Assembly (NCBI GenBank): GCA_963663955.1 | Contig: OY760694.1 | Location: 1,158,327-1,222,326 of the forward strand | From: Acidimicrobiia bacterium | GTDB taxonomy: Bacteria > Actinomycetota > Acidimicrobiia > Spongiisociales > Spongiisociaceae | DNA length: 64,000 bases | Reading direction: 5' to 3' | Shown: in pieces, positions 10,940-44,154 of the stretch | How positions within the stretch are numbered: position 1 is the stretch's first letter | How the letters are laid out: every line of letters starts with the position of its first letter | The notes under the pieces: generated by a model | What the model saw: the letters and a program-made list of their open reading frames with translations, nothing else | Databases searched by the model: none | What the model was told of the DNA's origin: nothing | Translations under genes and position numbers: made by a program

Positions 10940-10956
10940 CTGCGATCCCTTTCTTA

Positions 10957-16925: not shown

Positions 16926-17109
16926 CGTGCCATCTCCTCATGCTCTCTCGTGACAGAACTGCCGGTTAGTTCAAAACCGGTCGTCTATTGTCGACAATAC
17001 GCGTTAATACTGTACTGTCGGCAACCCCGAGGCGCAACTGTCGGGTTGTGGACGAGGGACCGATTCGACCGAGGCAATAGCCTTGGATGATTCATGTTGC
17101 GTAGTTGTT

Positions 17110-17958
17110 TCAGGAGGTCTTCGGCGGTCCCTTTCGAATGTGGTAGCGGAAGACCTCGACGTCCGCGTGAGTGGCGGTATCAAAGCTTGGACCATCATGT
17201 AGCCATGTAACGCCCGCTCGTTCGTACTCCTCGATCAGCCCAGGCGCCAAGCCGCTTCGATCAACCATGCCTTCCAGAAAGATAGACACGTCGAATGGCT
17301 TGCCTCTATCGCGGTAACGGTTGGTATATCCCATCACTTCCCGCACATCGCTAGGCGTCATCTGCTCGTCTCCTACCTTCATCGGAAACACGCCGTCCCA
17401 GTGGGCGGCCCGCCGGAATGGTGCTCGATGAGGCCACTTTCCAGCGATCCAGATCGGAATCCGCGGTTGCTGGACAGGGCGTGGTAGGAATGTGAAAGGC
17501 TCGATCCGGTTGTATTTGCCCTGATACCCGTACGGCTGACCGCTCCACATCCCTGCGATGATCTCAAGTCCCTCGTCCAGTTTGGCTGCCCGAATCCGAG
17601 CATCGGGATTCTCTCCGAACGCGTCAAACTCCGTATCGGCGGGGTTACCCAGACCTGCACCGAAGACCAGTCGGCCTCCGGATAACCGGTCGAGTGACGT
17701 TGCTTCGCGAGCAACCTTCCATGGCCTCCTCCGAGCGACCGGGGTGACCATCGGACCGATCCGGATCCGCTTTGTTTTAGTAGCTATCGCAGCCAACGCG
17801 ATCCAAGGATCGGCAATCGAGTTCCGATCCCAAAGCAGGATGTGGTCCCAAAGGAAGAACCCGTCCCAACCGGCCTGATCGGCATGGTCGGCCAACTCCA
17901 TCAAAGTGTTGGGATCCGACAGTGCGCCGAAATTCGGGACGTTCAGAGCGAAACGCAT
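17110..17958 (-). CDS. LLM-class (luciferase-like) flavin/F420-dependent oxidoreductase
   Basis: 282 aa. The N-terminus MRFALNVPNFG...WDGFFLWDH is typical of LLM oxidoreductases. Confidence 0.85.
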   Translation of the reverse strand: MRFALNVPNFGALSDPNTLMELADHADQAGWDGFFLWDHILLWDRNSIADPWIALAAIATKTKRIRIGPMVTPVARRRPWKVAREATSLDRLSGGRLVFGAGLGNPADTEFDAFGENPDARIRAAKLDEGLEIIAGMWSGQPYGYQGKYNRIEPFTFLPRPVQQPRIPIWIAGKWPHRAPFRRAAHWDGVFPMKVGDEQMTPSDVREVMGYTNRYRDRGKPFDVSIFLEGMVDRSGLAPGLIEEYERAGVTWLHDGPSFDTATHADVEVFRYHIRKGPPKTS

Positions 17959-18215
17959 TGCGATGTGATCCTACCGATAGGAATGGTCGGCAATCTTCCG
18001 ATCCTCTGAATGTGTCTCTCTGCCTGCTGGTTAAGTTGCAATGCCGCCCCGGTTGGAGGATTGGGAGGGTGTTGAAAAAGGACGTACAAGGGGTTCGCGC
18101 CAGGTACACAGCATCTAGCTACCAGGCAGTTTGCCGGACTGCGAACCCCGCTAGATCATTGTTCGGTACCCTCCTAGAGTCTGTATCTTGTCGACAATCG
18201 ACATAGGAGTCGAAT

Positions 18216-19502
18216 ATGCCGCTTGAAAAGCCTCGCCACCTGTCCCCAATCCTTACGCGTGCGACCGCCGTCCACGCTGCTCGCGGGGAGGGTGTCCATA
18301 TCATCGATCACCAAGGTAGGAAGTACCTGGACTTCACCTCCGGCATCGGAGTCACCAGCACCGGCCACTGCCATCCGAAGGTGGTTGAAGCGATTAGGAA
18401 ACAGTCCGGGAAGCTGATTCACGGACAGTACACAACCGTTCTCCATCCTCTTCTCGAGGAACTCGCAATTCGCCTGACAGAGGTGCTACCCGGCGAGATC
18501 GACAGCCTGTTCTATGTCAGCGCAGGTACCGAAGCCGTGGAAGCATCGGTCCGTCTGGCCCGCAACGCAACCGGCAAGTCGAATCTGGTGGTGTTCCACG
18601 GCGGGTTCCACGGCCGTACAACAGCCTCGCTATCGATGACCACCTCGAAGACCGGTTACGGAGACGGACTGCAACCCCTGATGGCCGGTGTGTTCGTAGC
18701 GCCGTTTCCTTATGCGTATCGCTATGGATGGGGTATCGAGGAGGCCGTTGACTTCTGCTTGAGGGAATTGGACTTCCTATTCGCGACCCAGACGGCGCCC
18801 AACGAAACCGCCGCAATGGTTGTGGAGCCTGTTCTGGGGGAGGGTGGTTTCGTCCCGGCGCCGGACAGGTTTCTCCAAGGGCTCCGGGAGCGGTGCGATC
18901 TTCATGGAGTTCTTTTGATTGTTGACGAGGTTCAGGCGGGGTTCGGACGCACAGGGAGTTTCTGGGGTCATGACCGTTCTGGTGTCATTCCTGACGTGGT
19001 CATCATGGCCAAGGGACTGGCTTCCGGAATGCCACTCGCTGCCATGGCTGCAAACCTGAAGCTCATGGAGAAGGCTTGGCCCGGATCACAAGGAGGCACC
19101 TACGGCGGGAACGCGGTCGGTTGCGCCGCCGCGCTGGCAACTCTCGATGTCATTCGGGAGGAACGGCTTGTTGACAACGCAGCGACGGTCGGATCCCGGT
19201 TATTGGAAAGCTTGCAGGAAGTAGCCCGGCAACATGAGGTCATCGGTGACGTGCGCGGAAGGGGCTTGATGATCGGGACGGAGTTTTCCCGTCCTGACGG
19301 TACCCCCGATGCTGAAACAGCCGCCAAGGTGCGCTACGAGTGTGAGCGTGGGGGGCTGCTGCTACTCCCATGCGGCGCGTTCGGCCAAGTGGTGAGATGG
19401 TTGCCTCCCTTGATCGTCTCGGAAGCCCAGGTCAAGGAAGCGGTCGGAATATTCGAGGCGGCTATCGCCGAAGTAACCAGTCAGGGACCGCATGAGCGAT
19501 AG
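18216..19502 (+). CDS. Class-III PLP-dependent aminotransferase (GabT/ArgD-like)
   Basis: 428 aa with class-III motifs, including DEVQAGFGRTG and the PLP lysine region. Its TAG stop is formed by the TA target site plus the first G of MITE copy B. Confidence 0.9.
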   Translation: MPLEKPRHLSPILTRATAVHAARGEGVHIIDHQGRKYLDFTSGIGVTSTGHCHPKVVEAIRKQSGKLIHGQYTTVLHPLLEELAIRLTEVLPGEIDSLFYVSAGTEAVEASVRLARNATGKSNLVVFHGGFHGRTTASLSMTTSKTGYGDGLQPLMAGVFVAPFPYAYRYGWGIEEAVDFCLRELDFLFATQTAPNETAAMVVEPVLGEGGFVPAPDRFLQGLRERCDLHGVLLIVDEVQAGFGRTGSFWGHDRSGVIPDVVIMAKGLASGMPLAAMAANLKLMEKAWPGSQGGTYGGNAVGCAAALATLDVIREERLVDNAATVGSRLLESLQEVARQHEVIGDVRGRGLMIGTEFSRPDGTPDAETAAKVRYECERGGLLLLPCGAFGQVVRWLPPLIVSEAQVKEAVGIFEAAIAEVTSQGPHER

Positions 19503-19705
19503 CCCCGATTATTCATGGATAGGGGTTTGGAGGTTGAGTGGATTAGACCATATTCGTACCCTGACCTGGAAATACAGGTATCAGCGTTTTCCCGTCCTAT
19601 CCGGTGTAGAGATTCACCTGTCGGGTGAATGGTGGGATTCTCTCAATACTCGGGTTGAACTGGCGTAACATACCTCGGTGTGTGGGAAACCTGAATAATC
19701 GGGGC
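19502..19705 (+). mobile_element. MITE copy B
   Basis: Same TIRs, TA flanks at 19500-01 and 19706-07. Confidence 0.85.
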
Positions 19706-19879
19706 TAGGTCCGCGTCGGCAAGCCATGTGACCGTTGTCCCGCGGGGGCTAGCCTCGGATTGTTCATGGATGGGGGTGTGAGGGTCGGATGGAGAGGTCA
19801 TGAAACGGGTGAACGCAGTGCTGAAAACAACCGGCGTCGCCTCGGCCTAATGTGTATCGGCTTGTCGGGAACCTTCGGT

Positions 19880-20950
19880 TCAGGAATCGGGATTGGGTGC
19901 CTGAGACACGTTGCCGGGTACGTATCCCAGCTTCTTGTCGACCACGTTGAGAAGGGGCTGACCGGTCAACCACCGATCGAGATTCTCCAAGAACTGATCC
20001 GCCAGCGCTTCGAGCCAGCCGTGGAAGTCAGCTGACATGTGAGGTGAAACTATAACGTTGGGCATGGCCCACAATGGACTATCGACCGGCAGCGGCTCGG
20101 TTTGGAAAACGTCCAGCGCAGCTCCCGCGAGCGAGCCGCTCTGAAGCGCGCCGATCAGGGCGTCCTCATCCAGCAGTTGACCTCTACCTACATTGATCAA
20201 CCGTGCCGAGGTTTTCATGAGCTTCAATTGCTTGGCGCCGATGATCCCCCGCGTGTGGTCGGTCAGTGGCAGCACGAGAATCACGAAGTCTGCGTGGGGC
20301 AGCAACAGTTCAAGGTCGTCGATAGAACGGACCAGACCGAAGTCCTTGTCTTGCCTTTCAGAGGTCGCCATCCCGATCACTTCGACCCCGAGCGATGCAG
20401 CGCTACGACCTATCGCCCGGCCGATCTCACCCGCTCCGATTATCAGTGCGTTCCGGCCCGCCAGCATCTCATTGTCCCGATGGAGCCACCTACGTTGGGA
20501 CTGAAGGGACAGGGTTGTGATCATGTCCTTGGCGAACACCAGCATCATTCCGACGACTGTTTCCGCGATGGCTTGATTGAACACGCCGCGTGCGTTGGTG
20601 ACCACAACGTTGCTGGAAGCGATCTCGGGAGTCATCACCGCGTCTACCCCGGCTGCGGCGACATGGATCCACTCAAGAGTACGGGCTCGGCCGAAGTTTT
20701 CTCGAAGCAGATCTGATCTAAAGTTCCAGAGGAGCACGATCTTTGCCTTGTGGAGCACTTCCCTCAGTTGCGTTTCCGTACGTACGTGATGGATTGCAAC
20801 TTTGTGCGCAACGGTCTCCAGTCCTGGAGGGAGCCGGCCGTCAAGTTTACCGATCACTACCAATCCGGGCGGCGAGTCGGGGCGGTGGGTAAGCATGCGT
20901 TCGTTCATAGAGACGATTCTACGGTAGCTAATACGGTCGACAATCGACAA
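19880..20950 (-). CDS. D-isomer-specific 2-hydroxyacid dehydrogenase (NAD-binding)
   Basis: NAD-binding GAGEIG motif and the catalytic R/E/H arrangement. The start could instead be the internal MNERML (about 20908). Confidence 0.8.
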   Translation of the reverse strand: MSIVDRISYRRIVSMNERMLTHRPDSPPGLVVIGKLDGRLPPGLETVAHKVAIHHVRTETQLREVLHKAKIVLLWNFRSDLLRENFGRARTLEWIHVAAAGVDAVMTPEIASSNVVVTNARGVFNQAIAETVVGMMLVFAKDMITTLSLQSQRRWLHRDNEMLAGRNALIIGAGEIGRAIGRSAASLGVEVIGMATSERQDKDFGLVRSIDDLELLLPHADFVILVLPLTDHTRGIIGAKQLKLMKTSARLINVGRGQLLDEDALIGALQSGSLAGAALDVFQTEPLPVDSPLWAMPNVIVSPHMSADFHGWLEALADQFLENLDRWLTGQPLLNVVDKKLGYVPGNVSQAPNPDS

Positions 20951-21056
20951 TATGCAGTGTGCCCGCTAGAGTGCTTCCAAGCAGTACCTCCTGAAGTAAG
21001 GGTGATGGCGGGTTAGACCTAGACGATGAGACGATCCAAACGCGCATCAGCACGCC

Positions 21057-21743
21057 ATGCATGGTAGGCAAGAATCAGGTCTAGACCAGCTGGAGCCTAT
21101 CGCCCGCGCCCCGACCGCTCTGATAATCGCCCGTAGGATTCGCAGGGCGATCCGCGATGGGACTCTCTTGCCAGGTACCCGGATGGTCGAGACACGCCTG
21201 GCTGAGCAGCTTGGCGTGAGCCGTGCCCCGGTCCGTGAGGCCCTACAACGCTTGATCCAGGAAGGCCTGGCCGTTAACAAGAGACGTGGCGTGTTCATCA
21301 GGGAGCTGACGAGTGAAGACGTACTGGACGTGTATCTAGCCCGAACGGCGTGCGAAACGGCCGCAGCCGAATCGATAATGCAGTCGCCCGATGATGTGGA
21401 TTGGAGTGTCCTGGAAGCTGCTCTGAGGTCACTGGAGGCGGCTGCCGAAGTGTCGAATCTCCGCTCGACTCTGGAGGCTGATCGCTTCTTCCACGAGCAA
21501 CTTGTGGAGGCGGCAGGCAGTCCTAGGTTGACAAGAATGTTCGCTACGTTGCTTGTTGAGACGGCCATCTGCCTTCGTCGTCTGGAAGGCGCGTACACGG
21601 AGGCAACTCACTTGGTTGAAGAGCATCGACGCATTCTTACGGCCCTAAGAGCGGGTGACCGGGAAGAGGTCTCGCGAGCGATCACAGCACACATGAACGA
21701 CGCAATCCATCACCTAACCGACAGGAACTCTGGAAGTTCGTAA
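21057..21743 (+). CDS. GntR-family transcriptional regulator (FadR/FCD subfamily)
   Basis: N-terminal winged HTH (RLAEQLGVSRAPVREAL) plus an FCD ligand-binding domain. Confidence 0.85.
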   Translation: MHGRQESGLDQLEPIARAPTALIIARRIRRAIRDGTLLPGTRMVETRLAEQLGVSRAPVREALQRLIQEGLAVNKRRGVFIRELTSEDVLDVYLARTACETAAAESIMQSPDDVDWSVLEAALRSLEAAAEVSNLRSTLEADRFFHEQLVEAAGSPRLTRMFATLLVETAICLRRLEGAYTEATHLVEEHRRILTALRAGDREEVSRAITAHMNDAIHHLTDRNSGSS

Positions 21744-22130
21744 GGTTAGGGCCGTACTGCTGAGAGTGGTGTCATCGCGTCGATGTCGTCGGTCGTCACG
21801 TTGATGACGGAAGGAACGAGGTACCTGAATCGTCCAGGCTTCCTCGTAGACTCTCTTGGACCCGGTATTTGAATGCCCTGGTAGGTTTGGTTGCGATGGC
21901 ACCTGCATATCCGTTAGATGGTTCGAGGGACTCCGGTACCGACCCGGCCTGCCACACTTGCCTATGGTGGGAACACCTTCCAACTCCGGATCTCGCCGCC
22001 GGCACGGGGTGGTGTCGCCGGTTTCCGCCCTGTCCAACCTGGCCGGTGACAGCGGCCCATGATTGGTGCGGCGAGTACCGGAGGAATGCGAGGACAGTCC
22101 GTATATCGGGCCAGATCCAACTCGGTATCT

Positions 22131-22336
22131 AGCCCTGATTATTCAGGTTTCCCACACACCGAGGCATACAAAGCCAGTTCCACCCGAGTATTGGGAGCAA
22201 CCCACCCGTTCACCCGACAGGTGAATCTCTACACCGGACCGGGATATAAACACCGATAGCTGTATCACCTGGTCAGGGCCGCGAATATGGTCTACTCCAC
22301 TCATCCTCCAAACCTCCATCCATGAATAATCGGGGC
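22131..22336 (-). mobile_element. MITE copy C
   Basis: Inverted orientation, TA flanks. It lies about 200 bp upstream of vapB. Confidence 0.85.
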
Positions 22337-22544
22337 TAAGTAAGGCATTACTGTCGGATGTACGTCGGGAGTTCAGGGTGGTGACCACAAATGATCGGGG
22401 CTCTGTTCTGGATTCCCTGCGCGTGCCGAACACACAAGTCGGTTTCGCCTTGCCACTAAACACTGCCATTTTTCGCTCTCAGTGCCCTGTCTGGTGTATC
22501 GGTTGGACATGTCCTAGAAAACCCCATGTGCTACTATGTAGAAC

Positions 22545-22820
22545 ATGGAAGCGGTAGGGATAAGAGAACTGAAACAGAATGCTTCGGCGGTGGTGGCTCG
22601 GGTGGCGGCGGGTGAGGCGCTGACCGTAACGCGTCGCGGCCAACCCGTTGCCCGGATGGTTCCACTCGCCGAGGACCGGATCAGGACGTTGATCGATTCC
22701 GGACTCGCACGACCGGCGCGTCGATCCGGGGCGGATCTGCCGTTACCAGTTTCCCTGGGGGAGGACCGGCCTGCTCCGTCGAAGGTGCTGGAGGAGATGC
22801 GCGAAGCCGAGCGCTTCTGA
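22545..22820 (+). CDS. vapB: Type II antitoxin, Phd/YefM-type (VapB)
   Basis: 91 aa. The N-terminus MEAVGIRELKQNASAVVARVAAGEALTVTRRGQPVARMVP is a classic Phd/YefM fold. It sits 4 bp upstream of the PIN toxin gene. Confidence 0.8.
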   Translation: MEAVGIRELKQNASAVVARVAAGEALTVTRRGQPVARMVPLAEDRIRTLIDSGLARPARRSGADLPLPVSLGEDRPAPSKVLEEMREAERF

Positions 22821-22823
22821 CCT

Positions 22824-23213
22824 TTGTTCTATCTGGACACATCCGCAGCGATAAAGTTGATCTTCATCGAGTCGGGCTCGACGGCTCTTCGAAGATGGTG
22901 GGAGTCCTCTCATTCCGAGGTGGTATCGAGTGACCTCCTGCGGACCGAGTTGACCAGGGTGGTGCAGAGGGTGGATCCGAACCGAATGGTCGAAGCGACC
23001 GTGCTGCTTGATGCGCTGGTGTTGTTGAAACTGTCGACCACGGTGTGCCGACGGGCCGGGATGCTACGACCGGCAGTTCTGCGCAGTCTGGACGCCTTGC
23101 ACCTCGCTGCGGCTTTGGAGTTGGGTGATGAGATGGCAGGTCTGGTTAGCTATGACCGGAGATTGAACGCCGCCGCCAGGGCTTCGGGGATTCCGGTTAT
23201 CAGTCCCTCTTAG
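22824..23213 (+). CDS. vapC: PIN-domain toxin VapC
   Basis: 129 aa with PIN acidic residues (LDTSA, DALHLAAA, YD). The TAG stop is created by the TA target site plus the first G of MITE copy D. Confidence 0.85.
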   Translation: MFYLDTSAAIKLIFIESGSTALRRWWESSHSEVVSSDLLRTELTRVVQRVDPNRMVEATVLLDALVLLKLSTTVCRRAGMLRPAVLRSLDALHLAAALELGDEMAGLVSYDRRLNAAARASGIPVISPS

Positions 23214-23416
23214 CCCTGATTATTCAGGTTTCCCACAAACCGACGCATGGAACGCCCGTTCAACATAAGTATTAGGATAAATCCAGCCTTCACCCGCGGG
23301 TGACCCTCCAACACCGGTCCGGGATGGGAAACACGATAGCTGTATTGCCTGTTCAGGGGCGTGATTACGGCGTAATCGACTCATCTGTCAAACCCCCATC
23401 CATGAATAATCGGGGT
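23213..23416 (-). mobile_element. MITE copy D
   Basis: TA flanks at 23211-12 and 23417-18, same orientation as copy C. Confidence 0.85.
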
Positions 23417-23581
23417 TAGGTGATCCGAGGCAACGTACCCGGAGCAAACCGACCCTATCCGGGTTGCTCAGCACCGGATGGGTCGATCTCACCGGTTTAC
23501 ATAGTCGCCGAACTTCTCGGTCGGCGTGAAGAACCGGAAACCGACTGTGGACGAGTTCTTAGGGTCTCCACGCCGTGATCA

Positions 23582-24325
23582 TCAGGAATGATCGGAACCC
23601 ATCTCCGGCGGTCCGCTACGGGTTGGAGCGGCCAGGATCCGGTTGCCTGTCTTCGATAAGGCTGCGGCAAAGAGGCCTGACGGTACCGCGACGATACCTA
23701 AGCCTATAAGCACGAGGACCATGGCCAGGATCTTGCCGGGAACCGTGACAGGCGCTATTCCTTCGGCGCCCATGGTTAGGGAAGCCACCGACCAGTAGAC
23801 ACACTCGAAGAGGTTGCTGTAGGCCTCGTTTCTCTCATGCTCGAACTCCCATATTCCGTACGCCGCGATGAATGACATTACGGCGGTCACCCCCGAGTAG
23901 AGGGCTAGTTCATCCTTGATGTCGTCGAACGCCGCGGAGAAGCGGTCAACGGCCGCGCTGTATCGGGCCAGCTTCAGGACCCGCAGTGACCGCAGGATGC
24001 GTAGCGGCTTGGCGGCAGCCAAGGCCGGTATGGACGCGAGACCGGCGACGACCGCTAGCAAGTCAACGATGCCGTAGAACGACCGAAGGTAGCGAATGGG
24101 ATGCTCTGCCGAGATAATACGCAGTACGTATTCAATGGAGAACACCAGCCAGAAGACCAGTTCGGCAATCAGTATCCAAGAATAGGTCCCGGTGGTTTCC
24201 TCGACCGTCGTGGAGTACACCAGGAGAATCAGCGACAAGATGACGGTGATCCCGGAGGTAGCCTCGGCAACCCGTCCCCGGGTCGTGTCTAGGCTGAATA
24301 ACTGATCCTTTAGCCCGACACCCAT
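23582..24325 (-). CDS. Ion transport protein (voltage-gated cation channel family)
   Basis: S4-like segment RILRSLRVLKLAR and a pore helix. The filter reads TMGAEG rather than the K+-selective TVGYG. Confidence 0.7.
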   Translation of the reverse strand: MGVGLKDQLFSLDTTRGRVAEATSGITVILSLILLVYSTTVEETTGTYSWILIAELVFWLVFSIEYVLRIISAEHPIRYLRSFYGIVDLLAVVAGLASIPALAAAKPLRILRSLRVLKLARYSAAVDRFSAAFDDIKDELALYSGVTAVMSFIAAYGIWEFEHERNEAYSNLFECVYWSVASLTMGAEGIAPVTVPGKILAMVLVLIGLGIVAVPSGLFAAALSKTGNRILAAPTRSGPPEMGSDHS

Positions 24326-31385: not shown

Positions 31386-32682
31386 TTATGCTTCCCAGAG
31401 CATTTTGATGGGCATGGCGAACAGGCGTTCCGACACTCGCTGGATGCGTTCGCCGTCATGGAGGAGGATGCCGCAGACAAAGCGGTCTCCCGTAGCGCTC
31501 CTAATACGCTTCAGACCCTTGAAGTGCCGCGGTAGGGCGGTTGCGCCGGCCTTGACCTCGATACCTACGACCGTGCCGGGCGAACATTCCAATATGAGGT
31601 CAACTTCGACACCGTCCTTGTTCCGGTAGTGGCTGATTGTGGTTGGTTCCTCGCTGAGAGCTACGGCCTTAGAAAGTTCTGCGTAAACGAAGCCTTCCAG
31701 GAGGGGACCTAGCTTCTGCCGGTCTTTCAAGACCTCAGGCCGGCCTACCCGCACAAGAGTTGCCAACAATCCGGAATCCAAAAAGTGCAGCTTGGGCGCC
31801 TTCACCAGCCGCTTCAGTTCATTGTTGTGCCATGCCCTCACTCGATGAACAAGGAACATCTGCTCGAAGAGGGTGATCCAGCGATCCACAGTCTTGGCGT
31901 CCACGCCGAGTTGAGCGGCAAGGCGACTGGTGTTGAGTAGTTGGCCGGATGAGATCGCTGTCCGCTCCATTAGGAGTCTCCCGTTTGGTTACTTTGGCAA
32001 GATCGTAGACTTCGCGCTCGGCCAGGGAACGAGCATAGGAGAGTATCCAGGCCCGGCGCCGGAGTGGATCACTTCGGGCTAACGCCAGGGGAAATCCGCC
32101 GGAAACCACCCGTTCGATCAGGTCGGCGGTAGGTCCGGTGTTCTGGTATGTCGCGAAGCCTCCGATGAAAGCCTGGTCAAGGAAACCTGGTGGGGGAGTG
32201 CCCGCTATCTCAGCTTGTGAGAAGGGCAGCAGGGTTATGGTTTCCACCCGTCCAGCAAGCGAGTCCGGGGAGGACGAAACCGCAAACAGGTCTACGGAAC
32301 CGGTGATCAAGAAACGTCCCGGGCGAGGGTCCTCGTCTACCTGCTTCTTCAGGGCGAGCAGCATGTCGGGAACACGCTGTATTTCGTCGATCACCGCATA
32401 TTCGAGACCTCTGATGAAGCCATCCGGATCATCGCGGGCGAAACGTCTATTTTGGTCGTCGTCCAGCGTGATGAAGGGCCGACCGTCGTCCTCCGCTACT
32501 CGGCGGGCGAGAGTTGTTTTACCGGACTGGCGCGGCCCGACGATGGCGACGATACGTGTGTCCGAGAGCGCGGTTCGAATCCGTGCCTCGGCGTGCCGAT
32601 CTACAAAGCCGCCGCCGATGAGTGCGTCCATGATTTGGTCTCCGTCCGATCCGGAATTGTTAACCGTCTGATTTGGAATCAC
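31386..32682 (-). pseudogene. AAA+ ATPase (AAA_14 + DUF4143 family), frameshifted
   Basis: The N-terminal ORF (32682-31819, Walker A GPRQSGKTT) and the C-terminal ORF (31970-31386, DUF4143-like) overlap in different frames. Together they equal the intact paralog next door. Confidence 0.7.
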
Positions 32683-32867: not shown

Positions 32868-34160
32868 TCATGGACCCAGGGAGGTGATGGGGATCACGCA
32901 CACCCCGTCGGGTCGCTCGAATGCATAGCCGGTAGCCGTGACCACGATCAGTCGCGACGGAAGGCCTTGCGAGGCGCTATCGACTCTGGCTCGGAGCCGG
33001 AGCAGGGACGCCGCGGCCTTGTCGATGGCTTCTCGGCCACCCAGTTTGACCTCTACCGCAGCCCAGCGTCCGTCCGGTTGGGATATCACCAGGTCCACCT
33101 CCAAACCCTGGCTGTCCCGGTAGTGGGAGACAGACGCCCGGATGGCTCCGGCGTAGACCTGGATATCGCGGATCACCATCGATTCGAAAAGGCGCCCGGC
33201 GAACCGCAGATCTCGCAGCAGGGCATGCACCCCCGTGTCCAGTACGGCCGCTGTGAGGGAGGGATCGACGAGGTGGAGTTTTGGCGCCTTGCGGACCTGA
33301 GCCCGAGATGCCAGATGAGGTCTCCACGCCGGCACCCTCTCCACCACGAACAGACGCTCGAGGGCGTCGAGGTACCGGCCGACTGTGCGGCGTTCCAGCG
33401 TAGGAAGTCCGTTACCCGGCGCTGTGTCCGCCGCCAGCGTGGTGTGTTTGACGTCTGTAGCCACGTTCCGGGCTATCGAGACCAGGAGGCGCTGCACCTT
33501 GAGTGGGTTCCGCTCGACGCCGTCCACTCTCGATACGTCGGTGCGGGTGATCTCTGACAGGTAGGCCCGGGCAGCGTCACCCGCCACATCGACGCTCGCG
33601 CCGACGTGTTGCGGCCACCCACCCCGGCAGGCCAACTCGAGCACATGGCCGAGGGAATGTCCCTGGTCCGGCGCCCGGCAAGGCCCACTGTCCAGGAGCT
33701 CGCCCAGGGAGATCCGACCTTCCGAGTCGCCGGACTCGATCAGACTCATGGGACGCATGCGCACCCTGACGATCCGGCCGGCACCGGAGTGTCGGGTGAT
33801 GTTATCGGGCGGGTCAGCCGAGCCGGTGAGAATGAATTGCCCCTTGAGCCCTCGCGCATCGCAGGCGCGCCGCATCGGGTTCCAGATGCCGGGCGCTAGC
33901 TGCCATTCATCCAGCAACCGCGGCGCCTCACCATCAAGGACCGCGGCATGATCCATACCCGCTGCCAGCGCCTCTCCGACGCGTTCGTCCAGAAACAGGG
34001 CGCTTCGAGCGAATCTCCTACTCGTCCAGGTCTTGCCACAGGCTCTCGGACCCTCTACGACAACGGCGGGCATGGTCTCCAGCGCAGAACGCATCCGAGA
34101 GTCCACGATCCGGGGCAGGTAACCGACGGGTATCATTCTGTCCGATTCCACCTGTCGCAC
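32868..34160 (-). CDS. AAA+ ATPase (AAA_14 + DUF4143 family), intact paralog
   Basis: Walker A GPRACGKTW, Walker B DEWQ, and a C-terminal DUF4143-like region (KLHLVDPSL). Confidence 0.8.
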   Translation of the reverse strand: MRQVESDRMIPVGYLPRIVDSRMRSALETMPAVVVEGPRACGKTWTSRRFARSALFLDERVGEALAAGMDHAAVLDGEAPRLLDEWQLAPGIWNPMRRACDARGLKGQFILTGSADPPDNITRHSGAGRIVRVRMRPMSLIESGDSEGRISLGELLDSGPCRAPDQGHSLGHVLELACRGGWPQHVGASVDVAGDAARAYLSEITRTDVSRVDGVERNPLKVQRLLVSIARNVATDVKHTTLAADTAPGNGLPTLERRTVGRYLDALERLFVVERVPAWRPHLASRAQVRKAPKLHLVDPSLTAAVLDTGVHALLRDLRFAGRLFESMVIRDIQVYAGAIRASVSHYRDSQGLEVDLVISQPDGRWAAVEVKLGGREAIDKAAASLLRLRARVDSASQGLPSRLIVVTATGYAFERPDGVCVIPITSLGP

Positions 34161-34299
34161 TTCCTCTTACCCTCGTACGATAGGCTAGCCCAAGGCTATA
34201 TGCCAGTTTATCGGCACTCCATATGCCAATAAACTGGCGCTTTAGAGCTTGCTCTGGATGGGGAGAGTTGCTTCGGGCGGGTCGCCTTGGCCGATTCCT

Positions 34300-34412
34300 T
34301 GCGCGGTTACCAGTACCGGGTTGGCCGCGGGTCCGTTATTAGGCTCCACCAAGAAGGCGTTGGCCCCAAGAGTCATCGTGAACCTCTCAATGGATTCCAT
34401 CCGACCGCCGTT
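34300..34412 (-). pseudogene. Relic 5' end (promoter-proximal region plus first codons) of a paralog of the OLD/PARIS-like ATPase gene
   Basis: It aligns to 37945-38090, covering the upstream region, start codon and P-loop-encoding segment of the 36268-38064 gene. There is a roughly 43-bp internal deletion (encodes MESIERFTMTLGANAFLVEPNNG...). Confidence 0.65.
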
Positions 34413-35391
34413 TCGTGACGGACCTGAGCCTGGATCCACCGGCGGGTTTTGGTGGTTTGGTGGTTGGATAGACGTGGAAAGTGCCTCTGGTCTGGGACAA
34501 TAGCCGTAAGCGATGGGGCTGTTGGTCCAGATTTGGTAGGCACTTCCTGTGAGTGGAGTATGGCAGAGTATTGACCGGTTGGGGGTTGTTTTCGATGATG
34601 GGGGTTGGTGGCGGATGGGGGTTTGCTGCTGGCGGGGACGGTGATGAGCCGTCTGGGGTTGGAAGCTTTGGTGGATGACACGGTGCGGTTGGGTGGTCGG
34701 GTTGGTGGCGCGAGTCCGGGTCGTAAGGTGCTGAGTTTGGTTGCTTCGATGCTGATGGGGGGTTCTCATATTGATCATGCGGATTGGCTGCGGGCCGGGG
34801 CTTCGGGTCGGGTGTTGCCCCATCGGGTGATGGCTCCGTCTACGTTGGGTACGTTTCTGCGTTCGTTTACTTGGGGGCATGTACGCCAGTTGGAAAAGGC
34901 GTTGACGTTGTCGACAGGTCGGGCGTGGGAAGCGGGCGCGGGTCCGGGCGGACACCGGGGAAGTGGTCGGCGCCCGGCTTCGGGAAGGGTCTTCGCAGCG
35001 GGGTGTGGTCCATTTCGCTCGGGAAACCATCGGTCGGGTGCGGAGGGCCGGAGTTTCGGGTGGGATAAGGGTTCGAGCCGATTCGGGATTCTATTCCTAC
35101 CAGATGTTCCGAACCCTGAACCGGGCGGGTGTCGACTGGTCGATCACCGCGCCCCGATACAAGAACGTTCTTGAAGCGATCTCGGGTATCGACGAAGACG
35201 CCTGGGCTTCTATCGACTATCCCCAAGAGGGTGTAGCGCAGGTCGCGGAGACCGTGATACAGGCGACGCATCGTACCCACCGGCGGGAACACATAAAACT
35301 ACGTTTGGTGGTACGCCGCACCCGTCTGGTGGGTTCCCACGCCACACTGTTTTCCGACAAACCCGGTACGGTTCATCCGGTTCCAGCGTGA
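34412..35391 (+). mobile_element. IS1380-family transposase remnant (frameshifted and C-terminally truncated)
   Basis: Overlapping ORFs encode ...LLLAGTVMSRLGLEALVDDTVRLGG...HRVMAPSTLGTFLRSFTW... and ...RADSGFYSYQM..., typical of IS1380-type DDE transposases. The fragments lie in different frames and total about 260 aa, not about 450. Confidence 0.55.
35353..35375 (+). repeat. Solo copy of the IS3-element right terminal inverted repeat
   Basis: TCCGACAAACCCGGTACGGTTCA matches the right end of the IS3 element at 44489-44511 at 22 of 23 positions. Confidence 0.5.
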
Positions 35392-36267
35392 CTCTTGTGC
35401 CCATTTCGCGAAGGTGGCGCCTGACGCGCCCTATCCTCGAGCCGGATACGCCGCCAGCTACGTGACTATTGGGTGGCCGGCAGAACTCTACATCTGTCAA
35501 CACATAGCCCACCGCGAGGTAGGCGTGTTCCTGAGCGGAAAGAACGGTAGAGGGGATCCCGATGTCAAGAAGCGAATTGCACAGTGCGCAGCCGCGCTCA
35601 CGAAAGAGCTGGGGGAGGGGATAAGAGTTTCACGGGTCCTCGACTCACCAGCGCACCGACTCCAACGACCTGAGCAATTGGGACAAAATGGCACATTGCT
35701 CGAAGGCCGGCGAGCAATCTACGAACGAGTTCTGTCGAACGGCACTCCCCTCAACAGCGGCTGACTTGAGACTCGCCAACCGACAGAAACGGCTTGCGCC
35801 TGGGGTGGCGGAGAGCGAGAGTCCCTGATAAACGTCGCGTTCCGGTTTCCGCCGTGCCTTGTCTATATGCTTGCCACTCCAACCACCGCGATCCTTCCAT
35901 CGGAAAGGCCACCCGGAGGTCCGGCGTACGCTGTTCTCCGTCATCTGGGATCGAATCTGGTGATCGCTAACACCCTCGCCGATGAGATCCAAGGGGCCTG
36001 ATCGGAGGGGTCAATGAAGGCGAAGGCCCTCTTGCAAACCGGTGCGGTCGCCTGTGACGGGGTTTAGAAGGCCCAGGTAAACATCCCTGTTTGACCCGGT
36101 TGCCAACACAATATCCCCACAGTGTGATCCCTTGCTCATCTCAGCCTTCCTACCGTGGCACGGAGGTTACTTCGTGCGGGCCGCCATGGCCGATTTCCTT
36201 TGCGCGGTTATCAGGACCTGGTCGACCGAGGGTTCAGATCTGATTCGAGCACCGCGGGTAGTTGTCC

Positions 36268-38064
36268 CTACCACATGTGGTGGCCGAGCCGTCGTGGTTG
36301 AGTCGCGTTACCGACGATGCTGGAGTTGACCTCGAACAGCCAGTTGTGCATCTCCTCGGGTATCTCGGATTTGCGTAGTTGGCGAGCGAGGTGCTTGGTC
36401 GATACGGTCGTGTAACCGGCCTGCTGGAGGGTCTTGTTCAGTTCGTTCAGTATTGATTTGGCCGGATACCTGTGAAGGCGCCAGACGGGATCCGAGACTC
36501 GTGGCCTTAGCTCTGTGTTTGTTACGCTGATAGTGCGGGCTAGGTTCTTCTTGCCGAACGGGCTGAAGAAATGACGTTTTTCGGCGAACTGGGCCAGAAC
36601 ATCTTCCGTCATATCGTCTGTGATTGAATCCAACTGGGACGAGATATAACTCGGCGATGAGTTTGACACGCGGGCTAGTGCTGTTGGGTCAAGTAGATAG
36701 TTCTCAAGCTCCTTTCGCTTCCAGATATGGGCGTGGACGCCGACCGCATCAAGACTCGAGCACACCTTGCCAACGTCGACATCGGCTCGATAGTCGCGAT
36801 CCAACAGCACATATACCTCAACGGAACCATCGAGGAAATCTGAGACGAACCACTTAAAAGGTTCGACGCGGACCCAGTTGCTGAAGCCCTTGATCTCAAT
36901 TACTGCACAGTTGTGCTCGCGGGCCAGGTTGTTGGCACCTACGGTCTTCGCCAACTCCCGGATGATGGACATGTCGTCCCCTTCCACAAAGACCACGGTT
37001 CGGGCACGGAGGGCCGCTGCGAGCCGCAAGTTGAAGCTTGAGCCGATCTGGGTCGATAGATCCTCGAGCGATGCTGGCTTGGGTCGACGAACGGCCCTGC
37101 GGCGGGACTTGTCAACCCACACAACCGAGTCAGAAGACGCTTCCGCGAGCATCTCGGATGAGTGGGTTGCAGTGATCGTCTGCGCTGGCGTTGAGTCAAG
37201 CAACCTCACTAGACGCCGCTGGAGGTCAGCATGTAGATAGAGGTCAGGCTCATCAAGGATCACCACATCTGCCGACCGAAGGCGCCAGAGGTGGGTCAGG
37301 ATCTGTACGAAGATCTGCATGCCATCGCCGACCCAGTAGAGCTCCTTCGGCGTCCTGTCGCCACGCTGTTGCACGAGCGCGTCGATCTCTCGGTCGCCAA
37401 GCTCTCTGCCGGGACGTGTCGTCACCAAGAGTTTTTCAATTTCCGGGAGCCATGAGGTCACGAACTCGTTGAAGTTCTCCAACTCGCCGTCGCGCTTGAT
37501 CCGACGCAGATGGTTACGAGCATGCTGGCTGGACCTTCTGCCCTGGAAGTGGGCCCGTAGGTACTTCGTATCCCGGACTGTTTCGGTGTGGTTCAGTGGG
37601 TAGAGGCCCGGGATGACCCCGATCTGGCCGGTCAGTCCTCGAACCTCGCGTGGCTCCGAGATCGATCGTTCGTCGGGGTGGCGTAGGTAGAAGAACGGCT
37701 CTCGAGAGTCGTCGTCATCGGAGGGCCAAACCCCAGTGAGTATCAGTTTGGTGTCGGTACGAATAGATACGGCCGACTCTCCGGGGCGGAATTGGTGTCG
37801 AAGGTTCTCCGTCACCAAGCCGTACTGATCCGCGCGGAGCGAATGCGTGCGCGCAAGCCGGTGGCCATGTTCTCGAAATCCGGTCGCCCTTCTCCGGGAA
37901 GCGTGTTCCAACATCCCTGCCGCGACTCTTGCCGCCTCAATAAGGGTTGACTTTCCGGCGTTGTTCGGCCCCACCAAAAAGGCGTTGGCCCCAAGCGTCA
38001 TTGTAAACCTCTCGAAGGCCTTATAGTTCCACAGGTCTAGTTGTTGGATGCGCATGGATTCCAT
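36268..38064 (-). CDS. OLD-family / PARIS-like fusion protein: ABC-type ATPase (AAA_15/21-like) plus C-terminal Toprim/DUF4435-like nuclease domain
   Basis: 598 aa. Walker A GPNNAGKST, signature-like GDGMQ, Walker B VVILDEPDLYLH, H-loop TATHS. The C-terminus has VVFVEGDDMSII and VLLDRDY motifs (Toprim-like E/DxD). Confidence 0.7.
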   Translation of the reverse strand: MESMRIQQLDLWNYKAFERFTMTLGANAFLVGPNNAGKSTLIEAARVAAGMLEHASRRRATGFREHGHRLARTHSLRADQYGLVTENLRHQFRPGESAVSIRTDTKLILTGVWPSDDDDSREPFFYLRHPDERSISEPREVRGLTGQIGVIPGLYPLNHTETVRDTKYLRAHFQGRRSSQHARNHLRRIKRDGELENFNEFVTSWLPEIEKLLVTTRPGRELGDREIDALVQQRGDRTPKELYWVGDGMQIFVQILTHLWRLRSADVVILDEPDLYLHADLQRRLVRLLDSTPAQTITATHSSEMLAEASSDSVVWVDKSRRRAVRRPKPASLEDLSTQIGSSFNLRLAAALRARTVVFVEGDDMSIIRELAKTVGANNLAREHNCAVIEIKGFSNWVRVEPFKWFVSDFLDGSVEVYVLLDRDYRADVDVGKVCSSLDAVGVHAHIWKRKELENYLLDPTALARVSNSSPSYISSQLDSITDDMTEDVLAQFAEKRHFFSPFGKKNLARTISVTNTELRPRVSDPVWRLHRYPAKSILNELNKTLQQAGYTTVSTKHLARQLRKSEIPEEMHNWLFEVNSSIVGNATQPRRLGHHMW

Positions 38065-38255
38065 CCGGCCGCCGTGTTTCGCGACGGAACTCTAGCGGTG
38101 CTTCCTTACGGAGGCTGCGTGATCGTGACGTTAGTGCGAAGTCGCCAACTCCGATGAGAACGGACAACAGCACTAGCCGGATCCTGCTGTGCAGGTATTT
38201 TCCGTGATGTCCTATAATACACGTTATGTAAAGCTGGAGTAGGTCGCAGGTTGCA

Positions 38256-39035
38256 GTGCCCTATGATCCTCACATGACCTCGATCGACCAGCTGTTGGAA
38301 AGCGACCTCGATACAGCTTCAAGGATCGCCGCCGACATCCTTCCGGATGTGGTCGCTGCGCTGGATCTGCTAGTTCCAAAGTTGACAGCTGGAGCGGACC
38401 GTGCCGCGTTGCGCCGCTATTACAACGCGATCGATGGCGCAGCGCAGACTCTGGCATCGTTGCCCGCCGACAATCCGGAAGCCCATGTTCCTTCTTCGGT
38501 GATACACCGACTTCTACAGCGACACATCGTTGAGTTGGCATGGGTAGCCCCGTCAGCGGACGGAACCGGTGTGCTCATCGCGTTGACCGACCGAGTCCGT
38601 GGGCTGGTCGGTGGTTTGCCCCAAGAATGTGTTAAAGCGCGGCCGGATATCGATGAGCACCGTTTCGGATGGCTTTTTGAATCGATTGCCGACCTGGAGT
38701 TCGAACAAAGGTGCGGTTCACCACTGCGACGCGCTATGAGGACTTTGGAACTGTCGAGCGCCGAGATGGCGGGTTTGATGGGGGTGACACGCCAGGCGGT
38801 GGACAAGTGGCTACTCGCCTCGCCGCCAATCGAGCGGATGGCGAAGATCGGAGCGATAGCCGAGATCTCAGACATGCTCCGACACCGACTCCGGGACGGT
38901 ATGCCCCCCGTGGTGGCGCGGCGCCCGGCCGAGGCATACGGAGGACGCAGCATGCTCGACGTGATTGCCGACGACGATCACGAGTGGCTGCGTTGCTCCG
39001 TCAGGGAAAGCTTCGACTTCGCACAGGTAGGGTGA
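38256..39035 (+). CDS. Xre-family antitoxin of a RES-Xre toxin-antitoxin pair (HTH plus C-terminal toxin-binding domain)
   Basis: HTH ELSSAEMAGLMGVTRQAVDKWL. The C-terminus AEAYGGRSMLDVIADDD resembles the DUF2384/MbcA-ParS toxin-binding domain. The stop overlaps the RES gene start (GTGA). Confidence 0.7.
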   Translation: MPYDPHMTSIDQLLESDLDTASRIAADILPDVVAALDLLVPKLTAGADRAALRRYYNAIDGAAQTLASLPADNPEAHVPSSVIHRLLQRHIVELAWVAPSADGTGVLIALTDRVRGLVGGLPQECVKARPDIDEHRFGWLFESIADLEFEQRCGSPLRRAMRTLELSSAEMAGLMGVTRQAVDKWLLASPPIERMAKIGAIAEISDMLRHRLRDGMPPVVARRPAEAYGGRSMLDVIADDDHEWLRCSVRESFDFAQVG

Positions 39036-39547
39036 GCGTGCTGACCGTATCGATCGGTGGATCGTATTACCGGGTCGTTGACCCGGACTGGGCGGACCAG
39101 CTCGACCCGTCCTTCGCTTCTGCGCATCCAGGCCGGCGATGGAATCCGCCCGGGACGGCGTGCCTGTACTTGAACCACAACGTGACCACAGCCCGAGCCA
39201 ATGTGATGAAACGATTCGTAGGCCTTCCCTACGGAACTGAGGATCTCGACCCTGCCACAGCCCCTCTGCTGCTCGGAGTTGTCGTTCCCGATGGAGAAGC
39301 ATCCGACGCCTACACCGAGGCGGGCCTCTCCGCCTTGGGACTACCCCCCACCTACCCGCACGACATCGCCGGTGATATGGTCCCACACTACGTGTGCCAA
39401 CCGATCGGCCGGGCAGTGTATGACGCAGGACTAGACGGTGTCGACTGTCGATCCGTCGTCGCTGACGATTGCCGCGAGTTGGCGTGGTTCCCCAGACGCA
39501 GAACAGCATCCGAGACATCACGACTCGCCTTTGACAACTGGTGGTGA
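39032..39547 (+). CDS. RES-domain toxin
   Basis: 171 aa from a GTG start. It carries the RES signature GRRWNPPGTACLYL with downstream conserved E and S. Confidence 0.8.
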   Translation: MSVLTVSIGGSYYRVVDPDWADQLDPSFASAHPGRRWNPPGTACLYLNHNVTTARANVMKRFVGLPYGTEDLDPATAPLLLGVVVPDGEASDAYTEAGLSALGLPPTYPHDIAGDMVPHYVCQPIGRAVYDAGLDGVDCRSVVADDCRELAWFPRRRTASETSRLAFDNWW

Positions 39548-39638: not shown

Positions 39639-40793
39639 ATGCGGCGGTTATATATTCATGAGCAGCCTGAATGGCCCCAACTCCGATGGCGGATAGACAA
39701 ACTGGATGACGGTCTGGGCGCTGTCCGCTATAGACAGGGGCGTCTAGCGGGCCGGATGCAGTCGTTGGGGTTCCACCTCCGGCAGGAGGCGATGCTCGAG
39801 ACCCTAATCCAGGACGTTCACAAATCGAGCGATATCGAGGGAGAACGGCTCGACTTGGAACAAGTCCGTTCCTCTGTCGGGCGTCGCCTCGGTATGGACA
39901 TCGGTGGTCTTCGCCATGTGGAAGACAAGGTTGAGGGCGTGGTGGAAATGATGCTGGACGCAACCGGCAACTATGACCTCTCTCTAACACGGGATCGGTT
40001 ATGGCGCTGGCAGGCAGCTCTGTTCCCAACTACTAGGCGCAGCCGGATGTTACCGATAACCGTAGGCGGCTGGCGTGACGATCGTACCGGACCCATGCAG
40101 GTGATCTCCGGACCCATCGGTAAGGAGCGGGTACATTTCGAAGCGCCCGCCGCGGAGCGGATCGACAACGAGATGGAGGCATTCCTCAGCTGGTTCAACG
40201 AGTCATCGGACACTGACGGAGTGATCCGGGCAGCGTTGGCGCATCTTTGGTTCGTGACTATCCATCCCTTCGACGACGGTAACGGACGCATAGCTCGAGC
40301 GATCACCGACATGGCGTTAGCTCGCTCGGAAGGCGGCTCACAGCGTTTCTACAGTATGTCATCACAGATCCGGGTGGAACGCCGCGCCTACTACCACATC
40401 ATGGAACGAACCCAGAAAGGAACACCGGACATCTCGGAGTGGATGGGATGGTTCCTAGCCTGTTTGGGTCGAGCCATCGATGGAGCCCAGGCAATCCTGG
40501 AATCTGTACTCAAAAAAGCCCACTTCCGGCAACATATCGAGGGCGTGCCACTCAACGAAAGGCAGCGTCTGGTTCTCGATCGACTCGTAGACAGCTTCGA
40601 AGGCAAGTTAACCACCTCGAAGTGGGCAAAGCTGGCCAAATGCTCCCAAGACACCGCCCTGCGTGACATAACAGCCCTGGTAAACCACGGTATCCTAATC
40701 CGCGGTTCGGCGCGGGGTCGCAGTACCAACTACTCCCCCAGCACCCGTCTTTTTGAGGAACCCGGCGCCGTTTCCATCTTGTCGATTCCATGA
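39639..40793 (+). CDS. Fic/DOC-family protein
   Basis: Fic motif HPFDDGNGRIAR and a C-terminal winged-helix-like region. Confidence 0.9.
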   Translation: MRRLYIHEQPEWPQLRWRIDKLDDGLGAVRYRQGRLAGRMQSLGFHLRQEAMLETLIQDVHKSSDIEGERLDLEQVRSSVGRRLGMDIGGLRHVEDKVEGVVEMMLDATGNYDLSLTRDRLWRWQAALFPTTRRSRMLPITVGGWRDDRTGPMQVISGPIGKERVHFEAPAAERIDNEMEAFLSWFNESSDTDGVIRAALAHLWFVTIHPFDDGNGRIARAITDMALARSEGGSQRFYSMSSQIRVERRAYYHIMERTQKGTPDISEWMGWFLACLGRAIDGAQAILESVLKKAHFRQHIEGVPLNERQRLVLDRLVDSFEGKLTTSKWAKLAKCSQDTALRDITALVNHGILIRGSARGRSTNYSPSTRLFEEPGAVSILSIP

Positions 40794-41762
40794 CCTGATC
40801 ACCCCGGCGAGACCCGAACCTTTGTTGAGGCGATTCAGGGAGATGGTCCGTCGAGTGAAAGTTCCGATAGAGCCTCCTAATCTGGGTATTCTGCGGGTCT
40901 GACTATGTCGCTCCGTCTCCGCCCCTCCATTTCCCGGATTCATACCTGCACAGGATTCCAATCTCGTTCATTCCAGTTATGTTCCGACCGGTCGTAGATG
41001 AGTCCGAGGGCTCGGGGCGTGGCGATGATCGCGATGGCCGGATTGTTATGGAGCACGCTGGGGCTAGGTGTCCGGTTCCTGGATGAGGTCGGGACATGGG
41101 CAATTCTGTTCTATCGGGCTATCGCGCAGATTCTGGCGCTGCTGGTTCTCATAGCGATTCGTCATCGAGGCTTACTGGTTCACACCTTTACGAGTATCGG
41201 TTTGAACGGTCTAGTCAGCGGGGTTTCACTCGCTTCCTCTTCGATCTGTTTCGTATATGCACTGAGCCTGGTATCGGTAGCCGAAGCTACCTTGATCCTT
41301 GGTGCGGCCCCTGTGCTGGCGGGACTGCTCGGGTGGCTGGTGCTACGTGAGCCGATTACCGGAACCAATTGGAGGACGATGGCTATAGCGGGGGCAGGGC
41401 TAACGATCATGACCTATACAGGGACGGTATCCGGGAGTCTGGTAGGCACCGCTCTCGCCTTCTGCGCTGCCTTGAGTTTCGCGTCATTCACGGTGTTCCA
41501 GCGACGCGGGATGCGAACGGACATGCTGCCGGCGGTGATCGTCGCAGGAATAGTCACGCTGATCGTCACCGCCCCACTGATCGGGGGTGTCGTTATCAGT
41601 TCGATGGATCTTCTGGTTGCTTTCTACTTGGGCGGTGTTGCCCTCGCGGGAGGCTTGGCTCTCTTCACCATAGGTTCACGTTATGTCCGCTCCACCGAGT
41701 TGGTATTGATTGAACCACCCCGGGTTTTCCGGAGACTCTAATTGGTTGGGAGATAATGGAGT

Positions 41763-44154
<2,392 letters not shown>

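Follow-up and report, generated by a model that had tools for sequence, protein, structure and literature searches.

A one-gene ATPase-Toprim protein in an Acidimicrobiia bacterium: a probable OLD-superfamily defence nuclease carried as mobile accessory DNA

The window analysed here is a 64,000 nt stretch of an Acidimicrobiia bacterium (contig OY760694.1, positions 1,158,327 to 1,222,326). It carries on its minus strand a gene for a 598 aa protein, in which an ATP-binding cassette (ABC) type ATPase is joined to a C-terminal Toprim domain. A two-domain architecture, intact catalytic motifs and purifying selection are all seen here, as are a patchy distribution that hops between genomic contexts and the lack of any conserved partner gene. 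By analogy with characterised systems, the gene is probably a stand-alone OLD-superfamily ATPase plus Toprim nuclease, which would serve as an accessory, mobile defence against phages or mobile DNA. A first-pass annotation had proposed the single-gene ABC ATPase plus Toprim architecture; this architecture was confirmed and is shared by a large family.

36268..38064, minus strand: complete gene for the 598 aa ABC ATPase-Toprim protein (from the open reading frame list, homologs and dN/dS)

The open reading frame runs from ATG to stop, with the stop codon at 36268–36270 on the minus strand. An alternative start codon, M4, is present at 38055. The true start may be this ATG instead of the one at 38064, because the sequence MRIQQL opens many relatives. 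A search of a 5.8-billion-protein collection gives 1222 homologs at E ≤ 1e-5. Full-length relatives are 575–657 aa long, most of them 580–600 aa, and the architecture is unchanged down to approximately 42% identity. Pairwise ratios of nonsynonymous to synonymous substitutions (dN/dS) against eight close relatives are 0.17–0.24; they are as low in the C-terminal half as in the ATPase half, and purifying selection acts on both. A dead gene is ruled out by the conservation and the dN/dS values. Promoter and terminator scans around the gene show nothing above shuffled expectation.

The N-terminal segment of approximately 320 residues is beyond doubt an ABC-type ATPase. Its features are as follows, with invariance judged in a 30-sequence alignment of the family.

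37105..38064, minus strand: ABC-type ATPase domain, residues ~1–320 (AAA_21, AAA_15, hhalign, Foldseek)
37945..37971, minus strand: Walker A (P-loop) GPNNAGKST, residues 32–40; G32, N34, A36, G37 and K38 invariant
37315..37329, minus strand: ABC-signature-like GDGMQ, residues 246–250; W244, G246, D247, G248 and Q250 invariant
37231..37260, minus strand: Walker B and D-loop ILDEPDLYLH, residues 269–278; D271, E272, P273, D274, L277 and H278 invariant
37159..37173, minus strand: H-loop TATHS, residues 298–302; A299, T300, H301 and S302 invariant

AAA_21 matches with 87 bits (cutoff 27) and AAA_15 with 57.4 bits (cutoff 32). ILDEPDLYLH aligns with the Walker B of P2 Old, Ts OLD and PtuA. GDGMQ appears to play the role of the signature motif, judging from its position ahead of Walker B. 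Foldseek matches the ATPase domain to GajA, PtuA, Ts OLD, Rad50 and SMC heads, and the PADLOC mad3, AbiLi and AriA models also match this half.

The C-terminal half displays a predicted Toprim fold with conserved acidic metal-binding residues, followed by a helical domain.

36661..37104, minus strand: linker helix and four-stranded Toprim core, residues ~321–468
36973..36987, minus strand: Toprim catalytic glutamate motif VEGDD, residues 360–364; V360, E361, G362 and D364 invariant
36793..36801, minus strand: Toprim DxD metal-binding motif DRD, residues 422–424; D422, R423 and D424 invariant
36697..36714, minus strand: third acidic motif KELENY, residues 451–456; E452, E454 and Y456 invariant
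36271..36660, minus strand: C-terminal all-helical domain, residues ~469–585, and disordered tail (helices from the AlphaFold2, AF2, model)

The motifs quoted in the first-pass annotation are found where it had placed them, i.e. GPNNAGKST at 32, ILDEPDLYLH at 269, TATHS at 298, VEGDD at 360 and DRD at 422. VEGDD aligns with LLVEG of Ts OLD and P2 Old. The catalytic residues of AriB are E26/D30, D88/E90 and E122 (PMC11464382). The distance from E361 to DRD is 61 residues, compared with 62 for E26–D88 of AriB, and E452/E454 lie 30–32 residues past D422, compared with 34 for D88–E122 (PMC11464382). Thus the acidic motifs are probably equivalent to the AriB catalytic set, as judged by spacing and not by superposition. 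The helical domain consists of six AF2 helices past the Toprim core, with predicted local distance difference test (pLDDT) scores of 93–98. It contains two invariant residues, P534 and N543, and two nearly invariant ones, R529 and K536, but gives no sequence-profile match.

Of the defence models, the PADLOC fused-AriAB model PDLC02981 scores best, with 85.2 bits (E = 1e-24) for the whole protein. This agrees with the earlier assignment to the OLD or fused-PARIS kind, as do the best profile matches in PDB, which are Ts OLD and PtuA and then GajA. The isolated C-terminal half gives 35.6 bits (E = 1.1e-9) over residues 346–468 with the same model, which also matches 23 of 24 family members. PADLOC models for GajA, Old and stand-alone AriB are marginal on the nuclease half. 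In relatives, the nuclease half is matched by the PADLOC models PDC-M55B (10 of 24), mad4 (4 of 24) and AriB (4 of 24). The Pfam OLD-like_TOPRIM model is matched by 14 of the 24 relatives (best E = 9.8e-4) and DUF4435 weakly by two (best E = 0.013). A profile of the C-terminal half yields nothing among PDB sequences even at E ≤ 10. In an exhaustive hidden Markov model (HMM) search with the nuclease profile, the best 150 matches listed are all members of the family.

Comparisons with validated families were made with the AriB (PARIS-1) sequence from the supplement of PMC9122126; the fused Vibrio PARIS in the same supplement ends before the nuclease and was left out. Single-sequence hhalign of the nuclease domain against the validated AriB and P2 Old families is not significant either way, and a phmmer search with PARIS-1 AriB did not find the solved AriB. 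Plasmid relatives from Cupriavidus, Nitrosomonas and Methylobacter were considered as a bridge to DUF4435 or OLD-like_TOPRIM, but their nuclease halves are also unseen by Pfam. Their connection with GajA, Ts OLD and AriA lies in the ATPase and the junction only.

Over its whole length the predicted structure (pLDDT 83) matches GajA and Ts OLD across 630–685 alignment columns. Structural matches to PtuA, Rad50 and SMC are confined to the ATPase half. The family profile matches Ts OLD (6P74) in PDB with E = 2.6e-13, GajA with 1e-9 and AriA with 5e-6. The Ts OLD alignment extends from Walker B through the linker into the LLVEG strand of the Toprim domain. With hhalign, the family profile and phage P2 Old show a collinear alignment of residues 3–383 with 2–421 (97.5% probability, E = 7.8e-12). 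This alignment includes SxQIGSxFNL versus SPQLHSAFTL in the linker and VVFVEGDD versus VLLVEGKT. Because both alignments are collinear, the ATPase–nuclease junction is homologous to a bona fide OLD junction.

The resemblance of the ATPase half to Rad50, SMC and RecF heads raises another explanation, that the gene is a housekeeping or genome-maintenance ATPase-nuclease, e.g. a RecF/SbcC/Rad50-like repair protein or a cell-cycle OLD ATPase like Cran1. The archaeal Cran1 belongs to an OLD-family class, is essential and has no defence role (PMC12796447). However, OLD, GajA and PtuA outrank repair proteins in the PDB searches, and the NCBIfam repair equivalogs fall far under their cutoffs (e.g. RecF with 20.9 versus 172). 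No non-defence ABC protein ranks first; a best match of that kind had been named beforehand as one that would speak against a defence protein. Some loci, such as L002, do lie among core metabolic genes, but the patchy distribution described below (approximately 190 loci detected among 185,579 species genomes), the loss of synteny even at 77–87% nucleotide identity of the gene, and a decayed second copy with insertion sequence (IS) elements alongside speak against a housekeeping gene. A housekeeping function is therefore quite improbable.

A partner gene was looked for in the window and at related loci. In the window, the nearest gene upstream belongs to a divergent RES-toxin locus, and downstream lie a 116 aa open reading frame without a family match and DDE-transposase fragments. 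At seven loci found by exact-protein look-up, the neighbours are wholly different. Flanking open reading frames of at least 90 aa within 4.5 kb were clustered for 80 reference-genome loci. The most widespread cluster is present at 9 of the 80 loci, on either side and on either strand, and looks like a tyrosine recombinase/integrase from its sequence motifs. Co-directional neighbours within 150 nt number 14 among 151 nearest neighbours, and all 14 are different (127–1007 aa). Small open reading frames (at least 25 aa, within 600 nt) are shared by no more than a few close relatives. A UvrD/GajB-like helicase does not occur in a fixed position across the 80 loci, and reverse transcriptase is absent from the 25 commonest neighbour families. 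A retron RNA was not found in the window, where the sole Rfam match is the ALIL pseudoknot. A convergent partner of approximately 720 aa was suggested by loci L002 and L006, but the two unannotated proteins are unrelated. Thus this is a one-gene system. That the gene is not Gabija, as had been argued from the window, holds at the 80 loci as well, where neither a UvrD/GajB-like gene nor any other partner recurs.

Actinomycetota form the centre of the family. Nearest to the window stand sponge-associated Acidimicrobiia, among them Candidatus (Ca.) Poriferisodalis, and after these come Gaiellales, Solirubrobacterales, Streptomyces, Micromonospora, Arthrobacter, Mycolicibacterium and Nocardia. Stray members are found in Patescibacteria, Dormibacterota and a Micrarchaeaceae metagenome-assembled genome (MAG). 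Three loci, L028, L043 and L049, carry full-length genes of approximately 39–40% identity in MAGs labelled Patescibacteria, Ca. Dormiibacterota and Micrarchaeaceae archaeon, respectively, and represent either horizontal transfer or binning contamination. Relatives at approximately 30% identity are found on Cupriavidus megaplasmids. The nuclease-domain profile gives 2065 clusters at 50% identity, and the 185,579 species genomes contain at least approximately 190 loci, a lower bound since the scan was seeded by motifs.

Twelve loci from closely related Acidimicrobiia (L001 and L008–L018, of which L001 and L008 are the same contig) show 77–87% nucleotide identity to the window, confined to approximately 36202–38099 at its widest. 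Similarity does not reach past the gene ends by more than a few dozen bases, and the 8 kb that were compared show neither flanking synteny nor a shared flanking gene. Where the start of the relative's gene is covered, the upstream limit is at approximately 38056–38099, close to the limit at 38091 of a second, decayed copy.

34262..34425, minus strand: internally deleted relic of a second gene copy (direct repeats, blastn)

The relic lies 2 kb from the gene and shows 81–87% identity to 36162–36233, 37959–38013 and 38054–38091. It consists, in this order, of the 3′ flank, codons ~18–35, and the start codon plus 27 nt of upstream sequence, with approximately 1.7 kb missing. A miniature inverted-repeat transposable element (MITE) was rejected as a reading of the repeat at 34.3 kb: the repeat is collinear with the gene apart from an internal deletion, and a search for inverted repeats gave none. 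The relic implies a past duplication or second acquisition, and subsequent decay. An integron cassette was considered as the mobile unit and rejected, as no attC-like core is seen in the flank sequence. From the lack of synteny and the decayed second copy, the gene therefore behaves as a compact accessory cassette with high turnover.

The following were observed around the gene.

31386–32682 and 32868–34160: tandem paralogous AAA_14 plus DUF4143 ATPase genes; the first is in two overlapping frames (31819–32682, AAA_14; 31386–31970, DUF4143), apparently by frameshift
34605–35391: two overlapping plus-strand open reading frames, the second with DDE_Tnp_1 at 23.0 bits, exactly at the cutoff; probably decayed IS fragments beside the relic
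38256–39547: divergently transcribed pair in which a 259 aa open reading frame without a Pfam match overlaps a RES-domain open reading frame (38.2 bits); looks like a toxin-antitoxin locus of RES-Xre/MbcTA type, the identity of the antitoxin not being confirmed
39639–40793: Fic/DOC protein with an N-terminal DUF4172
40998–41741: 247 aa membrane-protein-like open reading frame, apparently cut off at the IS3 element
41763–44147: IS3-family element with an ALIL frameshifting pseudoknot (RF01497, 99 bits, 42041–42157)

The orfB of the IS3 element has a short length of 250 aa and passes into an IS30-family transposase gene at 42747–44147, which is 74% identical to annotated IS30 transposases; this suggests insertion of IS30 into IS3. 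The G+C content falls at approximately 7 kb, from ~0.65–0.67 (window 1–7000) to ~0.56–0.59 (7000–24000), and stays lower, and this step could be a boundary of acquired DNA. As to the defence island proposed in the first-pass annotation, the region is accessory and rich in IS elements and toxins, but it is not a cluster of recognised defence systems.

The RES toxin, the Fic/DOC gene and the IS elements, together with movement of the gene as a compact one-gene cassette, would also suit a selfish addiction or toxin module (AbiEii/AAA_21-like, or a nuclease toxin) that stabilises its mobile island, and AAA_21 is annotated as "putative AbiEii toxin, Type IV TA system" (TA, toxin-antitoxin). That label is a family name and not a tested function for this clade. 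No conserved antitoxin-like partner, large or small, accompanies the gene; a constitutively toxic lone gene could not persist, and both domains are under purifying selection. A toxin module is accordingly the least probable of the explanations considered, and a very improbable one.

Across the family, 111 Pfam families are present among 148 nearest neighbours. Those that recur are transposases (5), ResIII helicase/restriction (5), integrases (4) and the Type I restriction-modification proteins hsdR (3) and N6_Mtase (3). GntR/UTRA regulators recur four times, in loci that also carry an FtsK/TraB-like open reading frame. In a Gaiella MAG the family gene lies 83 nt past hsdMSR, and in one other genome it is flanked by GmrSD/McrBC on one side and a DUF6361-helicase cluster on the other. 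A close relative of the window carries it beside an Abi_2-like gene, and on a Methylobacter plasmid hsdR and an SprT-like gene precede it. Same-strand adjacency to Type I restriction-modification (R-M) genes (hsdR/hsdM) is seen in L005/L019 (2892–5915), L029 (2592–5531), L070 (7866–10952), L090 (1–1798) and L012 (2904–4352). The hosts of the R-M-adjacent copies are Gaiella, Streptomyces, Arthrobacter, a Methylobacter plasmid and a Ca. Poriferisocius MAG. The adjacency exceeds chance, though only on a rough estimate. It fits a PARIS-like "anti-anti-restriction" role and fits generic defence-island clustering as well.

Several results weigh against a defence nuclease of the OLD superfamily. The Pfam OLD-like_TOPRIM model (PF20469) gives 17.4–19.4 bits for the whole protein and for residues 322–598, below the gathering score of 23.2, and DUF4435 (PF14491) does not match residues 322–598 even at E ≤ 10; the Toprim and DUF4435 matches that the first-pass annotation looked to for support thus failed to appear. 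The nuclease-domain profile is not significantly similar to the validated PARIS-1 AriB clade profile (E = 0.54), nor to the P2 Old clade profile (E = 0.088), with which only the linker and first strands align. The nuclease assignment draws on predicted structure and one PADLOC model. Defence genes are approximately 5% of nearest neighbours, many loci, including L002, lie among housekeeping genes, and no recognised defence system adjoins the gene in the window. Of 50,697 phage records none matches the family, and of 2.9 million viral contigs a single one does. No tested fused AriAB was found in the literature searched. The Pfam failure is not taken as refutation, because predicted structure and PADLOC agree on a Toprim domain, to which the invariant acidic columns also point; the nuclease half has diverged beyond what standard domain models detect.

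In Ts OLD, P2 Old, Vc OLD, GajA and AriA/AriB, the ATPase serves oligomerisation, sensing and regulation, and the Toprim domain is a two-metal nuclease effector (PMC7049728, PMC12392090, PMC11464382, PMC12796447). If the protein is a defence nuclease of this kind, homo-oligomers would form through ATPase heads paired around ATP, with the heads as sensor and regulator. A canonical ATP sandwich is argued for because the signature-like motif and the D-loop are invariant. The ATPase oligomer would hold the nuclease inactive until an infection cue is received. The Toprim site (E361, D364, D422, D424, E452/E454) would then cleave nucleic acid by two-metal catalysis, and cleavage would block phage replication or the infected cell.

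The substrate of such a nuclease may be predicted by analogy. Class 1 and Class 2 OLDs nick or degrade DNA in vitro, and AriB cuts tRNA-Lys (PMC12409363). According to the authors of the AriB study, it is not known what underlies this difference, and old data hinted at a tRNA target for P2 Old (PMC12409363). Given a defence nuclease, nicking or degradation of DNA is somewhat favoured, while tRNA or RNA cleavage as by AriB has a substantial chance that is nevertheless below even. DNA is put slightly ahead because the ATPase and the junction are OLD-like.

An alternative within the same superfamily is a fused PARIS (AriAB, "Class 4 OLD"), in which the ATPase senses anti-restriction proteins of phages, e.g. 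Ocr-like DNA mimics, and a tethered AriB-like Toprim domain cleaves host tRNA, so that translation is arrested and the infection is abortive. The PDLC02981 match and the R-M neighbours are as expected of it, although adjacency to R-M is expected of any defence-island gene. The AriB-defining DUF4435 is unmatched here and weak in two of 24 relatives (E ≥ 0.013), and the comparison with the validated AriB clade profile also speaks against it. Set beside Ts OLD, P2 Old and GajA, AriA is the weaker match to the ATPase and junction (28.5 bits against 52.7 and 40.8). In addition, AriA releases AriB, which dimerises, and this step could not take the same form in one polypeptide. Fused PARIS is thus rather unlikely.

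A further and still less likely reading is a distinct OLD class. It would be a single-chain "anti-anti-restriction" sensor-effector, Actinomycetota-wide (~2000 clusters), in which a Class 1-type ATPase and junction are combined with an AriB-like Toprim-helical nuclease, recruited beside Type I R-M systems and fired by phage restriction inhibitors. With the nuclease tethered, activation would therefore differ from the release of AriB in PARIS. If true, it could help settle whether single-gene OLDs cut DNA or tRNA in vivo.

Some sources already name relatives of the stand-alone OLD-superfamily protein proposed here "ATP-dependent nuclease" or "predicted ATP-dependent endonuclease of OLD family", and most name them merely "AAA family ATPase". 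Mildly new are the large Actinomycetota clade, a nuclease domain unseen by both defining Pfam models, and the cassette-like mobility. Because those two models miss the nuclease domain, the clade is likely to be undercounted or mislabelled in domain-based surveys. If a defence nuclease is the right reading, uncultivated Acidimicrobiia of the sponge-symbiont type, and Actinomycetota generally, join the hosts of one-protein OLD/PARIS-type immunity. None of this alters the present understanding of how these systems operate, and no mechanism-level surprise was seen. The clade lies on a boundary that has been flagged before, fused AriAB versus Class 1 OLD and DNA versus tRNA target, and the biochemistry of one member would bear on it.

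OLD classes are defined by gene context: Class 1 is a single gene, Class 2 occurs with GajB, Class 3 with a retron and Class 4 is PARIS, i.e. split AriA/AriB, occasionally fused (PMC10568477, PMC12392090). According to a 2023 review, it is not clear that fused AriAB should be separated from Class 1 (PMC10568477). Gabija GajA differs from the present gene in that no UvrD/PcrA/Rep-like GajB adjoins it in the window or at the 80 related loci, and the PADLOC GajA models score under AriAB. Of the Class 3 companions, retron RNA was not found in the window, nor reverse transcriptase among the 25 commonest neighbour families. The split pairs AriA/AriB, AbiLi/AbiLii, MADS mad3/mad4 and the PADLOC candidate PDC-M55 carry the same two activities as are predicted here, but in two genes, whereas in this family one chain is found and no second gene is conserved.

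Fused PARIS (AriAB, "PARIS merge", the proposed Class 4) is approached through the AriAB model, which covers the Toprim core (346–468) but not the helical domain, and the Pfam DUF4435 signal is absent. The published PARIS thresholds (PMC9122126, Rousset et al.) are 32/27 bits for AAA_15/AAA_21, 27 for DUF4435 and 80 or 20 for the merged profile. The protein passes those for the ATPase and, with the PADLOC copy, for the merged ATPase plus DUF4435 profile, and falls short for DUF4435; the PADLOC AriAB model and thresholds have not been confirmed as identical to those of DefenseFinder. PARIS of E. coli rides P4-like satellites, whereas this family is Actinomycetota-centred, chromosomal and almost never viral; its near-absence from viruses sets it apart from P2 Old also. 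Membership of PARIS proper is not claimed.

Class 1 OLDs (P2 Old, Ts OLD 6P74 and Vc OLD of Vibrio cholerae) are likewise encoded by a single gene without a partner. Collinear homology with the present protein extends from their N-terminal ABC ATPase across the linker into the first Toprim strand, and the length is close (586 versus 598 aa). The P2 Old relatives listed all carry OLD-like_TOPRIM and none of the 120 listed relatives of this family does; past the first strands, the Toprim sequences do not align. A helical domain of approximately 120 aa follows the Toprim domain here and is lacking in Ts OLD (PMC7049728), whose compact C-terminus is a typical Class 1 feature but no formal criterion. 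The GDGxQ signature-like motif is invariant in this family, while the signature of Class 1 OLDs is described as degenerate. The protein is thus an OLD-superfamily member that is Class 1 by gene context, with a nuclease domain nearest to fused PARIS by profile; the data do not separate these labels. Class 2 OLD and AriB share the post-Toprim helical domain, and the predicted fold of the whole nuclease region, Toprim plus helical, resembles the Class 2 OLD C-terminus and AriB, with a sequence profile like that of fused AriAB.

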